From Nitrosopumilaceae archaeon (GTDB lineage Archaea; Thermoproteota; Nitrososphaeria; Nitrososphaerales; Nitrosopumilaceae), in contig CBDATR010000005.1 of the NCBI GenBank assembly GCA_965200155.1, positions 35,138 to 99,137 on the forward strand: DNA of 64,000 nucleotides. Direction: 5' to 3'. The notes beneath the pieces are model-generated. The model did not search any database, was not told the DNA's origin, and was given only the letters and a program-made list of their open reading frames with translations. The position numbers and the translations under genes were made by a program. Shown here piece by piece: positions 18,464 through 61,747 of the stretch (the stretch's first letter is position 1; every line of letters starts with the position of its first letter).

Positions 18464-18572
18464 TCCTGCTAACAACTTTAACCCGGAATGTCGAATATAC
18501 TCCTAAATGGCATGACTTGTCCATTTTCGATCACTTCCTGCTAACAACTTTAACCCGGAATGTCGAATATAC
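18464..18572. repeat. Repeat-spacer-repeat: 37-bp duplication around a 35-bp insert
   Basis: TCCTGCTAACAACTTTAACCCGGAATGTCGAATATAC at 18464-18500 and 18536-18572. Confidence 0.9.
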
Positions 18573-18575
18573 AGC

Positions 18576-19211
18576 ATGAAATTGAATCTGGATGGAATAA
18601 TAGATACTTTAGAAGCGGTACAGGAGTCCCGGAACGCCCTGCTTACACAGTCTCGCCGTGCCATATCCGCGTGTGGTCGTGCCATAATACTGACACACCG
18701 GGGTATGCATGAGGAGGCAGTAGAGGCGCTAAAGATTGCCGACACACAGATAAGAACTATGCAGAATGCGGCTCTGCCCTCAACCATGCATTATATCATA
18801 CCTGCAGAGCAGGAGTATGCCGAGGCGTCCGTATTCATGAATATAGTAAGGCATGACAGTATACCGGATATATCTGCCTTGGCCATACAGCCTGAGTCAT
18901 ACGTGCTGGGCATGCTGGATGTTATAGGCGAGCTCAAGCGTCTAATGCTGGATCAGATACGAATGGGTATGGCCGATGCGGCACATCATACGTTTGATAC
19001 CATGGAGCGCCTGTATACGGACTTGTACGAATTTGCCGCATATGATAAAGTTCTCAGAGAGTCTCGCCGCAAGCTGGATGTAGCGCGGATACTGCTGGAG
19101 GACTGCCGCTCCATTATAACCGAGGAGCAACGTAGGCAGGATATGTTACAAAGCATGCGGGCGATGGGATTTGAACCCACGAACTCCTCAGAGACTAGCC
19201 CCTCAAGCTAG
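18576..19211 (+). CDS. Translin-family protein
   Basis: QEYAEA, YVLGMLDVIGELKR, RRKLDVAR. Confidence 0.88.
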   Translation: MKLNLDGIIDTLEAVQESRNALLTQSRRAISACGRAIILTHRGMHEEAVEALKIADTQIRTMQNAALPSTMHYIIPAEQEYAEASVFMNIVRHDSIPDISALAIQPESYVLGMLDVIGELKRLMLDQIRMGMADAAHHTFDTMERLYTDLYEFAAYDKVLRESRRKLDVARILLEDCRSIITEEQRRQDMLQSMRAMGFEPTNSSETSPSS

Positions 19212-28949: not shown

Positions 28950-29069
28950 GCGGCATAGCCACGGGTCTGTTCTAGCCGCCCAACCATGGGGCGGCATAGC
29001 CACGGGTCTGTTCTAGCCGCCCAACCATGGGGCGGCATAGCCACGGGTCTGTTCTAGCCGCCCAACCAG
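28950..29069. repeat. 41-bp tandem repeat x3 (36-bp GGGGC...GCCCA hairpin + ACCAT)
   Basis: GCGGCATAGCCACGGGTCTGTTCTAGCCGCCCAACCATGGG repeated. Confidence 0.9.
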
Positions 29070-29084
29070 AAAGGCTGGCGCATA

Positions 29085-47280: not shown

Positions 47281-47476
47281 CTGCTTTTAGCATACCTGGC
47301 ACTACAAAATTAGATCTTAACTTTTCTGTTTCACACGAGTCTGTTCAATAGTACGAAAAGTAAGTCCGCTTAGGATCCGGCGTACAGTAGCTGACTATTT
47401 CAGATTGCACAAGCCACGAAAGGCTATGGTAAAGAGAATAACAGAGGAATCAATAGTAAGACAGTGCAAAAGAGGC

Positions 47477-47587
47477 GTTGCCACAACCAAAATAGCTCAA
47501 GACCTAAACATCGCGAGTGGCAGTGAAATATATTCGCAATATGCATATGATGTTGCCACAACCAAAATAGCTCAAGACCTAAACATC
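47477..47587. repeat. Repeat-spacer-repeat: 36-bp duplication around a 39-bp insert
   Basis: GTTGCCACAACCAAAATAGCTCAAGACCTAAACATC twice; single in IS481 copies A-C. Confidence 0.92.
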
Positions 47588-48050
47588 AGTTCAAGACACG
47601 TACGAAGATTGTGAACCAGAGAACGGGAACGACTCAAGTAAAGATGGGCAGGCCCATGATACCAATCACCGCCACACAGATACGAATGGTAACTGAAGCA
47701 TACAGCAAGGATCCCGCCGGAGTAGTACGTATTGCAAAGAGGCTTAGACATAATACATACCACGCAGTATATCGCATAATGAAAAAGAACGGTACGGCAG
47801 GATCATCACCTGCAAAGTCAGAGTGGGTACGCTATGAGCGTAAATATTCCAATGCAATGTGGCACTGGCATGTCATGAAAGATGAGCGCTTCAGGGGACT
47901 GGATCTCATAGATGATGCATCCAGGTGTATAGTCGGAGCGGCACTTTGAGCATGCAACCTCAGAGAACGCCGTTCTATTACTGAGACTGGCAATGAAACG
48001 ATTCGGCGCCCCTGCATCTCGGATAACGGCGCGTGTTTCGTAGGACAATA

Positions 48051-54597: not shown

Positions 54598-54744
54598 GTA
54601 TGAGTTCACGTCTTCCGGAATCTTGTGCACAAAAGAACCGGTTCTGTATGAGTTCACGTCTTCCGGAATCTTGTGCACAAAAGAACCGGTTCTTTAACTG
54701 TCGCGATCAGTTGTGCGTAAATTTAGACACAGGTGAACTCATAC
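54598..54744 (+). mobile_element. MITE variant with 48-bp tandem duplication of its left end
   Basis: TIR starts at 54598 and 54646; TSD GAGAACCA. Confidence 0.9.
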
Positions 54745-55457: not shown

Positions 55458-57158
55458 ATGGGAGGACGAGAAACCACAATACTATTTGGTATGGTTGCCA
55501 TAGCTGCCTTGGGAACGGTTATGACTGTATATGCTCAGGACACAATATCCGGACTTGAGGTAACCGGTACGTCCGATGGCGCCACCATGTCATGGGATAG
55601 ATATGATAGAATGGAAAATTACGTGGTTCGTGTTGATGATACACATGGCCAGCGAGTAATGGTGACACATACAAGCGGAATCTCATATACGATAACCGGC
55701 TTGGCGTCCGATACCTCATACCAGGTATCGGTCCGGCTCAAGGGTGACTCGTCGGTAAAATCAGATACGATAACCTTTACTACACTTTCTGATACCTCAT
55801 CCAAAATAAATGACGATGATAATACCTCTGCCAAGATAACATTGTATTCTCCTGAAGTCACCAGTGACGGTGCCTCCATATCCTGGGATAGATATGATAG
55901 AATGGATCGATATGTTATACGAGTCTTGGATAGTAACGGTGACAGAGTACAGGTCAAGCAGGCTACAGGAACCTCATACATTATAACCGGCCTGGAATCC
56001 AACACCTCATACCAGGTATCTGTCCGGCTCAAGGGTGACACTTCCGTACAATCTGATACAACAACCTTTACCACGCTTGGTACGGGTACAGGCAAGATAG
56101 CACTGAACACAATTAGATCCACCAGTGACGGTGCCTCCATATCCTGGGATAGATATGATAGAATGGATCGATATGTTATACGAGTCTTGGATAGTAACGG
56201 TGACAGAGTACAGGTCAAGCAGGCTACAGGAACCTCATACATTATAACCGGCCTGGAATCCAACACCTCATACCAGGTATCTGTCCGGCTCAAGGGTGAC
56301 ACTTCCGTACAATCTGATACAACAACCTTTACCACGCTTGGTACGGGTACAGGCAAGATAGCACTGAACACAATTAGATCCACCAGTGACGGTGCCTCCA
56401 TATCCTGGGATAGATATGATAGAATGGATCGATATGTTATACGAGTCTTGGATAGTAACGGTGACAGAGTACAGGTCAAGCAGGCTACAGGAACCTCATA
56501 CATTATAACCGGCCTGGAATCCAACACCTCATACCAGGTATCTGTCCGGCTCAAGGGTGACACTTCCGTACAATCTGATACAACAACCTTTAGGACTACA
56601 AAATCGGTCGGCGCACCCAAGTTCACCAGTTCCATAGGCAATATAACAATGGAAGAGGCCCAGGTCCGTATCATAACCTTGAATGCGACGGATCCCAATG
56701 GTGATTCCTTGGTATATAGAATCACAAACCAGGACGATTCCCCCACGCCCGTTGTTTTTTACATAGATGATGACAAGCTGTATCTTGTTGCTACCAGACA
56801 TGAATCTGGCACATACAAACTGCGTGTTACAGTGAGTGATGGAACGAATATAGACAAGGACGACTTTGTGCTTACCATAAATGATGGTGCCATTCCGCCT
56901 CCCTCCATTACTAGAATAACAGATACTACTATAACTATACAACTCCCCAGTGAGGACGACGACCCGCGTTGTGTAGCTGCCTATGCCATTTCCTATATTC
57001 CACCTAAGTTCGCGGTTGGTGTTCAGACAGAGTCCGGGGAGCCTATTACAATAACGGACCTAACACCTAGCACAGTTTATGATGTCACCGTATACAACAG
57101 ATGTCACAGTTATTATTTGAGCCACTTCACGTTTACGACAACGGATAATCCTTCCTAA
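55458..57158 (+). CDS. Secreted fibronectin type III repeat protein
   Basis: Signal peptide, four FN3 units, then cadherin-like and FN3 domains. Confidence 0.9.
   Translation: MGGRETTILFGMVAIAALGTVMTVYAQDTISGLEVTGTSDGATMSWDRYDRMENYVVRVDDTHGQRVMVTHTSGISYTITGLASDTSYQVSVRLKGDSSVKSDTITFTTLSDTSSKINDDDNTSAKITLYSPEVTSDGASISWDRYDRMDRYVIRVLDSNGDRVQVKQATGTSYIITGLESNTSYQVSVRLKGDTSVQSDTTTFTTLGTGTGKIALNTIRSTSDGASISWDRYDRMDRYVIRVLDSNGDRVQVKQATGTSYIITGLESNTSYQVSVRLKGDTSVQSDTTTFTTLGTGTGKIALNTIRSTSDGASISWDRYDRMDRYVIRVLDSNGDRVQVKQATGTSYIITGLESNTSYQVSVRLKGDTSVQSDTTTFRTTKSVGAPKFTSSIGNITMEEAQVRIITLNATDPNGDSLVYRITNQDDSPTPVVFYIDDDKLYLVATRHESGTYKLRVTVSDGTNIDKDDFVLTINDGAIPPPSITRITDTTITIQLPSEDDDPRCVAAYAISYIPPKFAVGVQTESGEPITITDLTPSTVYDVTVYNRCHSYYLSHFTFTTTDNPS
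55859..56591. repeat. 261-bp near-perfect intragenic tandem repeat (~3 copies)
   Basis: CCAGTGACGGTGCCTCCATA at 55861, 56122, 56383. Confidence 0.93.
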
Positions 57159-60616: not shown

Positions 60617-61296
60617 CATGGCTTTGGATTGTCACCATTATTCCCGCCCTGACGCCTCCGGACGACACGCTCTGCCGCCCCATACAGGGAAACCAGTTAC
60701 TAAACGCCGCGTTGATATCGGCGTGAAATTCCTGGTTACATATTGAAAGTGTCACTAGTTGATCGTGATTTGTCGTCAACGTGTCCACACACGTGACGGG
60801 TCTGGCTTGTGTATTTCGCCGGCACAGCCGCAAATTCAATCCCCAGTGCCTCGCACTTTTGTACTACTTTCCGGCGGAACTCGCCTACCCGGTTCTCGCG
60901 CATGGAGCGGTTCATTGTTATTTTGTGGTTCCCGCCATTACTGGTCATTGATATCGGCGATAAATCATCTAGTACTACCTTGCCCACACCTTTGGTGACC
61001 GCGTGGACTATTCTATTCGTGGAGTCGTTCGCAATGTTGTTGGCTTTCTGTCGTAATTGAGTGACTTGTTTCTCGATCTTTCGCTTCCTGCGCTTACCTT
61101 TTCGCGTTCTAATACTCTGGAGTGAGATAATCTCCCGCAATATGGAACGATGTATCATGTTATGAATAATCGTTCTACCATTCGTGTAAGCTGTTACAGC
61201 TAGATGTTTCCCGCCGACATCCACGCCGCGAACAACGCTGGTTGGTACATGTTTTGGTGGTTTCTCCCGTATATTGATGTGAATCTCGAATTGACG

Positions 61297-61409
61297 CTCC
61301 CTACTATTGGTTACTCGTTCCACTATCTTGAATGTACCTTGTCAAATACAAAGAATTCTACCTCAGGACCCCTCCCTACTATTGGTTACTCGTTCCACTA
61401 TCTTGAATG
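61297..61409. repeat. Repeat-spacer-repeat: 38-bp duplication around a 37-bp insert
   Basis: CTCCCTACTATTGGTTACTCGTTCCACTATCTTGAATG twice. Confidence 0.92.
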
Positions 61410-61637
61410 AGTGCATGTCCAAGGAACGATCGATTATTTTGGTTGTTCTCACCATACCAATACCCGGCAGGTATAGTTCGCGAGAACCGCGCCTTATCGG
61501 CGGACTCACACATTACTCTATCATTGTCACGCCGGTGTGGTATGTAATTAGAATGATCCTCGTACGCCCGCCTGCACGCGACAGACGCCTGTAATATGGC
61601 ACTTCGGCCATAGTTAGAGGGTAACTCGCGCACCCAC

Positions 61638-61747
61638 TCCAGATCAGGGCGCCACTTTGTCAATTCCAGGAACAAATATTCCGGTACACCAGCGGCCTGA
61701 ACGGCTCTATCCAGATCAGGGCGCCACTTTGTCAATTCCAGGAACAA
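61638..61747. repeat. Repeat-spacer-repeat: 38-bp duplication around a 34-bp insert
   Basis: TCCAGATCAGGGCGCCACTTTGTCAATTCCAGGAACAA twice. Confidence 0.92.

Follow-up and report, generated by a model that had tools for sequence, protein, structure and literature searches.

We analysed a 64,000-nt stretch of DNA from a Nitrosopumilaceae archaeon (hereafter the window, C5:35138-99137), which belongs to an assembly of 51 contigs and 2.38 Mb that is 87.6% complete; contigs are referred to by number (C5, C9 and so on). On its minus strand the window carries a decayed tnpB gene of the IS200/IS605 OrfB-like kind (60736-61747), into which two short pieces of DNA have been inserted, each between two copies of a tnpB sequence. 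The gene was recognised by the Pfam matches of an open reading frame (ORF) at 60736-61323 on the minus strand (195 amino acids), which scored 33.0 bits against Cas12f1-like_TNB (cut-off 26.3) and 30.4 bits against OrfB_IS605, just below the cut-off of 30.5. We call each arrangement of duplication, insert and duplication a unit; units c and d lie in tnpB, and units a and b elsewhere in the window. The tnpB frame is split and contains stop codons, two of them contributed by the insert of unit c, and the gene is therefore a pseudogene. The insert of unit c is very probably a CRISPR spacer, misplaced through off-target integration by the cell's own Cas4/1-Cas2.

Unit c consists of a perfect direct repeat of 38 nt, whose copies (61297-61334 and 61372-61409) lie 75 nt apart from start to start, and of a 37-nt insert between them (61335-61371). 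The original prediction, made from the letters of the window, had read the reverse complement of this insert as a glutamine synthetase peptide and had taken the insert for a captured 37-bp piece of chromosomal glnA. The window letters bear out the reading: on the minus strand, which is the glnA sense, the insert runs as a single G followed by the codons from GGT to GTA, which translate as GPEVEFFVFDKV. The proposed origin held as well. In a BLAST search of the assembly the 37-mer was identical (37/37, E=3.4e-15) to C10:308550-308586 on the opposite strand; there was no second full-length match in the assembly, and the remaining BLAST matches reached at most 16 nt. The source ORF on C10, which contains ...FWGPEVEFFVFDKVHWD..., matched Gln-synt_N (E=1.6e-26) and Gln-synt_C (E=1.4e-119) in Pfam and thus classes as a glutamine synthetase of type I. 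The motif GPExEFFxFD holds metal ligands of glutamine synthetase. Among 80 glnA loci from other genomes the top match to the 37-mer was 35/37, and the glnA products of relatives share 76-85% protein identity with that of this organism, which on this gene falls within the Nitrosopumilaceae. Because the foreign loci reach only 35/37, the insert was most likely copied from glnA of this same genome. The prediction had further held that the insert is no slippage product, and for unit c this stands, because the insert has no sequence in common with its flanks and its source lies on another contig. The source match can be extended by 2 nt on the left and 1 nt on the right, so that a true duplication of 36 nt fits, 38 nt being the length of the maximal repeat.

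The second insertion in tnpB has the same anatomy. Unit d comprises two perfect copies of 38 nt (61638-61675 and 61710-61747, spacing 72 nt) and a 34-nt insert (61676-61709, plus strand), which is identical (34/34) to C34:112405-112438 in an ORF for a PurQ-like glutamine amidotransferase (GATase_5, E=9e-37). The match gains one base per side, which gives a 36-nt spacer with a 36-nt duplication. The prediction had read RAVQAAGVPEY at 61676 as part of an open coding frame; the insert does lie within ORF-derived DNA, but the peptide belongs to an antisense frame and the gene frame reads IIFRYTSGLNGSI. Of the three spacers of the window other than that of unit c, the one at 61676 thus has a source, and those at 18501 and 47513 have no match in the assembly.

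The genome contains more than 20 tnpB paralogous pieces, and the closest paralog is itself fragmented. A paralog on C9, 97% identical and not an orthologous allele, has each target of units c and d once and is exactly 75 and 72 nt shorter at these sites; units c and d are therefore insertions with target duplication. Among the other tnpB paralog pieces found, none spans the insert sites except one, which carries a different insert of its own at the site of unit c (C10:39401).

A type I-G CRISPR-Cas system resides in this genome. A search of the whole assembly with PF01867 found only one Cas1, a Cas4g/Cas1g fusion of 549 amino acids on C9 (NF049935, E=1.1e-213, full-length profile coverage) with cas2 adjoining. 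The order on C9 is Cas4g/Cas1g, cas2, a 166-nt leader and the array, and genes past the array on the opposite strand encode a Cas3-extension protein, Cas3g, Csb2 and Csb1. NCBIfam matches at this locus are TIGR02621 (1.2e-212), TIGR02570 (3.1e-20), TIGR02165 (2e-84), NF049934 (3.1e-82) and TIGR01573 (9.6e-09). In an alignment judged by eye, the cysteines and D..ExK motifs of Cas4 and the motifs of Cas1 are present, and the adaptation module is apparently intact. With Cas3g, Csb1/Cas7g, Csb2, Cas4g/Cas1g and Cas2 all found, the system is type I-G by its gene content. The large subunit Csx17/Cas8g had no TIGR04113 match in the genome, where a divergent form may escape the model; with the same model it was also undetected in 3 of 4 congeners and detected in G001. 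Fragments of an IS5-family transposase lie ~0.7-1.6 kb upstream of csb1, and a split anti-phage gene set with DUF499 and a DUF1156 methylase lies beside the effector genes (C9:98700-105800), with no Csx17/Cas8g gene detected at its expected place. The array comprises 289 repeats of 36 nt over 21 contiguous kb, with a degenerate repeat at its far end, and its 288 spacers have a mean length of 36.99 nt and are mostly 36-38 nt long. The core of the CRISPR repeat was found on C9 only.

Units of this kind were sought across the assembly by scanning for direct repeats without mismatch that measure 28 nt or more and recur at a period of 55-95 nt. Hits in the array, in low-complexity sequence and with repeat-like inserts were left out, and units with a duplication of 33-41 nt and an insert of 30-42 nt were kept; the census depends on these filters. 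It yielded 50 units on 9 contigs, the four of the window among them; at three loci, two inserts follow one another in tandem. The duplications measure 33-40 nt (36 or 37 nt in 37 of the 50) and the inserts 32-39 nt, with periods of 71 (3 units), 72 (20), 73 (14), 74 (7), 75 (5) and 78 nt (1). Subtracting 36 from the mean period of the 50 units leaves 36.92 nt, versus a mean array spacer of 36.99 nt. A duplication of 36 nt is compatible with 12 of the 16 units that have a perfect source, the boundaries being ambiguous by a few bases. In the off-target events described for Escherichia coli by Nivala and colleagues in 2018, the duplication reportedly equals the repeat length. Unlike a canonical array, each unit has a different local repeat, which matches the CRISPR repeat at 17 of 36 positions at most, and every unit of the window duplicates its own local sequence, with no repeat common to the units. 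That the repeats are local and not common, that their geometry equals that of the type I-G array and that the four units of the window belong to a set of 50 had been overlooked in the original prediction. A looser scan gave 19 further units with imperfect duplications, uncurated and outside the 50, which are probably older events. Selection for insertions in frame was considered and rejected as at most weak: the periods in the window are all multiples of three, but genome-wide this holds for 26 of 50 units versus 102 of 288 array periods (p=0.028).

Half of the inserts (25/50) match elsewhere in the assembly, 24 in the chromosome and 1 overlapping array spacer S58. Among the chromosomal matches, 16 are identical over the full length, 4 have one mismatch and 4 have two or three; the remaining 25 inserts, those of units a and b included, have no source in this 87.6%-complete assembly. 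In contrast, none of the 288 array spacers matches sequence beyond the array over its full length, and shorter outside matches are limited to two, S58 (to an ectopic insert) and one spacer with a 17-nt partial match. S58 and that insert (C25:4797-4831) have 28 nt in common with an offset of 9 nt, and the overlap suggests that they came from overlapping protospacers of one invader. Thirteen of the 24 chromosomal sources lie on C10 (C10:28035-414241), a contig that makes up 22.7% of the genome (p=8e-4). With regard to a replication-related source bias, the GC skew of C10 and C24 was flat and uninformative, with no hint of an origin or terminus. When array spacers and inserts were compared by BLAST with the collected loci of relatives, only chance matches of 16-17 nt were obtained, glnA apart. 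A 21-nt string common to two array spacers, sought as a route to a protospacer-adjacent motif (PAM) from invaders, was absent from the viral_contigs and metagenome_contigs collections. TTN is the PAM reported for the Cas4/1 fusion of Geobacter (PMC6547450). Taken as a prior hypothesis, TTN stood beside 7 of 20 self protospacers with at most one mismatch versus 12.6% expected (p=0.009).

In the off-target integration that we favour, the type I-G Cas4g/Cas1g-Cas2 would capture a chromosomal glnA fragment of ~37-39 bp. The two 3' ends of the fragment would be joined to opposite strands of tnpB ~36 bp apart, a ruler equal to the repeat length of the real array, and the 36-38 bp of tnpB between them would then be duplicated by gap repair, so that tnpB'-spacer-tnpB' results. 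At least 50 units across the genome would have arisen in this way. Csb2, the Cas5/Cas6 fusion of type I-G, would not process the units into CRISPR RNA (crRNA), because the duplications at their flanks differ from the CRISPR repeat and lack its hairpin. If the units are left unprocessed in this way, perfect self-matching spacers could persist in them, and would be missing from the array, where they would be autoimmune. The anatomy, the source of the insert, the empty site, the resident system, the matching geometry and the self-match contrast are observed; that Cas4/1-Cas2 catalysed the events, that the stagger is 36 bp and that the units yield no mature crRNA is what we infer.

Off-target spacer integration that yields neo-CRISPR loci has been described for the type I-E system of E. 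coli by Nivala, Shipman and Church in 2018 (10.1101/148544, PMC7054753, PMC6698737). As reported there, these events are rare and need overproduced Cas1-Cas2 and supplied oligonucleotides (PMC7054753); their natural frequency is called unclear, and the evidence from natural genomes is presented as circumstantial and drawn from two species (10.1101/148544). The units described here resemble those neo-CRISPR loci in their spacer-sized insert, their non-CRISPR site, the duplication of the target and the possibility of an extra spacer, as in our three two-spacer loci. They differ from what is described for E. coli in that the host is an archaeon not in culture whose Cas4/Cas1 fusion is of type I-G, in their occurrence as 50 fixed units of which about half are self-derived, and in that two units lie inside the cas4/1-cas2 junction itself.

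The Cas4-Cas1 fusion of Geobacter sulfurreducens type I-U/I-G belongs to the same protein family, and TTN at some protospacers may be a further likeness to the account of that system (PMC6547450). As in canonical leader-proximal adaptation, the spacer lengths of our units follow the distribution of the local array. Unlike adaptation as described in G. sulfurreducens, the target here is not the leader-repeat junction; moreover, the Geobacter chromosome is reported as avoided (PMC6547450), whereas here the chromosome supplies at least 24 of 50 inserts. The Cas1-Cas2 of Pyrococcus furiosus provides an archaeal integrase that acts on non-CRISPR DNA with repeat-length spacing in vitro (PMC6698737), and histones are reported to lower off-target integration in that organism (PMC13748974). 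The 'ectopic' acquisition reported for the type II-A systems of Streptococcus thermophilus and S. mutans likewise takes place away from the leader-proximal repeat, but there it concerns an internal repeat of a true array, whereas the sites here lie outside any array and the insertion creates its own repeat (PMC7999890, PMC5338259). No description of large-scale natural off-target integration or of the CRISPR of this organism was found in the literature searched, and the natural candidates of Nivala 2018 may bear on novelty. The best reading is that a known mechanism acts here in a subtype and a domain of life new to it, in nature and with an unusual density of units.

Several results weigh against off-target integration by Cas4/1-Cas2. 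In geometry, 4 of the 16 perfect-source units require a duplication of 37-38 nt and not 36 nt. The original prediction had asked for a PAM beside the source, and none is evident: TTN adjoins the glnA protospacer on neither side, 13 of the 20 self protospacers lack it, and a de novo search for a flank motif was not significant (TT at -3,-2 in 7/20; null maximum with a mean of 6.2 and a 95th percentile of 8). Target sites agreed with the repeat ends at 4.29 of 8 positions versus 4.31 for random sites, and similarity to the whole repeat was weakly raised (14.5/36 vs 13.8). Sites mimicking the ATTGAAGG end of the repeat were rejected as an explanation of target choice, similarity to its last or first 8 nt being no better than random. 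The off-target sites of P. furiosus, on the other hand, are reported to share features with repeats (PMC6698737). Two congeners (G005 and G006) have intact Cas4g/Cas1g and large arrays, yet 0 and 1 units per 800 kb, so having the system is not sufficient. Finally, the Logan contigs of 4 sequencing runs, all short, did not bridge the insert junctions of unit c (61334/61335 and 61371/61372), and a junction 36-mer was absent from metagenome_contigs.

These last two results bear on an assembly or sequencing artefact, in which chimeric joins would have put a glnA fragment into tnpB, and the 51-contig bin does include some foreign-looking contigs of low GC content. The Logan result itself is neutral and neither supports nor refutes the junctions: Logan cover over the insert of unit c came from contigs that continue into the glnA flanks, and loose ends at 61676 corresponded to the uninserted paralog form. 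We consider an artefact very unlikely. Chimeric joins would not be expected to yield fifty cases in which 33-40 nt of local sequence are perfectly duplicated around 32-39 nt of insert, matching the array in mean length (36.92 vs 36.99 nt), and as inserts and flanks have no common k-mers, mis-joins in the assembly graph are not expected either. In addition, the same scan gave so few units in the two congeners, and the 21-kb array of 289 repeats was assembled contiguously, which we take as a sign of long reads.

It is likewise highly improbable that the units function as mini-CRISPR arrays or serve regulation as self-targeting guides, such as a glnA-directed crRNA or TnpB guides. Off-target units in E. 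coli have been proposed as seeds of new arrays (10.1101/148544), and the three loci with two tandem spacers and the presence of both units c and d in the tnpB locus would suit this idea. Against it, the 'repeat' differs from locus to locus and is so unlike the CRISPR repeat; the source genes appear intact and match at 100% identity, which speaks against active interference with DNA; and the host copy of tnpB is broken, with units found in many unrelated contexts.

Replication slippage or templated-insertion repair, acting without a CRISPR integrase, is extremely unlikely. Local duplication processes are active in the window, as seen from plain tandem duplications that have no insert (28950-29072 and 54598-54693), but slippage cannot bring 37 nt from another contig, and templated-insertion repair is not known to leave a fixed flanking duplication of ~36 nt. 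Moreover, the sizes of the units match the repeat and spacers of this genome, and one insert overlaps the protospacer of an array spacer. The least of the rivals, another mobile-element integrase (casposase or transposase) that makes ~36-bp target-site duplications, is hardly conceivable: the genome is rich in insertion sequences (IS) and TnpB copies (333/1000 random 36-mers are multi-copy) and casposons are known in this archaeal family, but the whole-genome search with PF01867 yields the Cas4g/Cas1g gene only, the inserts are unrelated 32-39-nt fragments of chromosomal genes and not a conserved element, and known transposon and casposon duplications are much shorter than ~36 bp. Taken together, the four rivals remain improbable.

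The sites that received inserts are often repeated sequences. Multi-copy targets make up 28 of the 50 versus 333 of 1000 36-mers drawn at random (odds ratio 2.5, p=0.002), and several sites took up more than one insert, each time a different one: the tnpB site of unit c, a site in an IS66-family transposase gene (4 inserts) and a site in an element of ~85 copies (3 inserts among the 50 and one older unit). The IS66-family gene is present in ~76 copies, and in many of them a 36-nt sequence near the 5' end forms a repeat, a conserved 36-nt 'spacer' and a second repeat. At least three copies have further, different inserts at this site (C24:500840-501100, C10:83012, C24:460667, C10:210127, C13:47756 and others). 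The arrangement resembles an old integration carried along as the IS spread, at a site that is still a hotspot.

Fifteen of the 50 sites lie within open frames of at least 150 amino acids, and the frame is preserved in 8 of the 15. Units interrupt two genes, one for an amidohydrolase and one for an FtsX permease, and other genes carry in-frame insertions. Two units, which together add 148 nt (C9:70400-70587), lie between the stop codon of cas4/1 and the start codon of cas2. In the four congeners examined (4/4) these two codons are adjacent and the 148 nt are absent, which provides a second empty-site case. The start codon of cas2 in the present genome is a TTG that falls within copy three of the duplicated sequence. 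The two units may uncouple the expression of cas1 and cas2.

We compared unit densities by applying the same scan and filter to 800 kb each of this genome and of G005 and G006, and the present genome gave 17 units. Cas4g/Cas1g was matched in 7 of 10 genomes of the genus searched, the present one included, and 5 of the matches exceeded the family cut-off. In G006, ~70 scan rows were excluded by eye as protein-coding tandem-repeat clusters, mostly with a 75-nt period and one common motif. In the single candidate unit of G006 (G006:C1:867871-867980), 38 nt are duplicated around an insert of 34 nt, and its period of 72 nt is the commonest period of that genome's own array; the insert has no other copy in G006. 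As causes of the high unit count, a defective Cas4 domain was rejected on the presence of the Cas4 motifs, the loss of Csx17 on its being undetected in 3 of 4 congeners as well, and repeat richness alone on repeated 24-mers of 13.6% in G006 vs 15.5% here (7.4% in the other congener). Candidate causes are that the cas4/1-cas2 junction is interrupted, that selection is relaxed in a symbiont rich in repeats, or that adaptation activity is unusually high.

A wider claim, on which we are evenly divided, is that the genome is a natural record of promiscuous Cas4/1-Cas2 activity. It would hold at least 50 fixed integrations at ~20 times the density of the two congeners, about half of them self-derived, with a source bias over ~400 kb, hotspots unlike the repeat, a hit on the cas4/1-cas2 junction itself and a fidelity that is perhaps loosened. 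If this is true, off-target adaptation would be a real mutagenic force in nature, through gene disruption, in-frame insertions of 24-25 codons and new repeat-spacer units, and the self fraction at unselected sites would estimate how frequently naive adaptation samples self DNA before autoimmunity purges the arrays. With dozens of natural events available from a single organism, and with their sources and empty sites at hand, the target-choice rules of a type I-G integrase become testable. The same holds for the sampling of self DNA by naive adaptation (at least 24/50 at unselected sites vs 0/288 in the array) and for the genomic cost of mis-integration, given the disrupted amidohydrolase and FtsX permease genes and the in-frame insertions elsewhere. 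For annotation, lone repeat-spacer-repeat units with unique 'repeats' should be treated as footprints of an integrase and not as arrays.

The remaining two units of the window lie apart from tnpB. Unit a (18464-18572) has a 37-nt duplication (18464-18500 and 18536-18572) and a 35-nt insert (18501-18535), and it stands directly upstream of a translin-family ORF (18576-19211; translin, E=8.4e-07). Unit b (47477-47587) has a 36-nt duplication (47477-47512 and 47552-47587) and a 39-nt insert (47513-47551). It lies in frame within the helix-turn-helix region of the small ORF (47405-47614) of a multi-copy element, which reads ...VATTKIAQDLNI-ASGSEIYSQYAYD-VATTKIAQDLNI... and whose matches to HTH_23 and GerE are weak and below cut-off. 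Neither insert had a match in viral_contigs or any other match in the assembly. The first 29 nt of the target of unit b (47477-47505) belong to an abundant element, with at least 65 further copies at 88% identity or more and ~100 places genome-wide.

Tandem duplications of the window that have no insert are 28950-29072 (41 nt, three copies), 54598-54693 (48 nt, two copies) and 55859-56592 (261 nt, 2.8 copies). Eight public sequencing runs hold parts of the locus (each at most 0.41 of the sampled words), of which five are labelled as sponge metagenomes and three have a coded organism label. Many short contigs of the assembly (C2-C4, C6, C15-C18, C26-C28, C44-C45 and others) have a GC content of 35-41% versus ~47% in the large contigs. 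Microsatellites of the types (GT)n, (CA)n and (ATT)n occur on these short contigs, which therefore look foreign, possibly host DNA binned together with the archaeon. On C7, a perfect tandem repeat of 14 nt extends over ~1 kb (C7:13672-14714).

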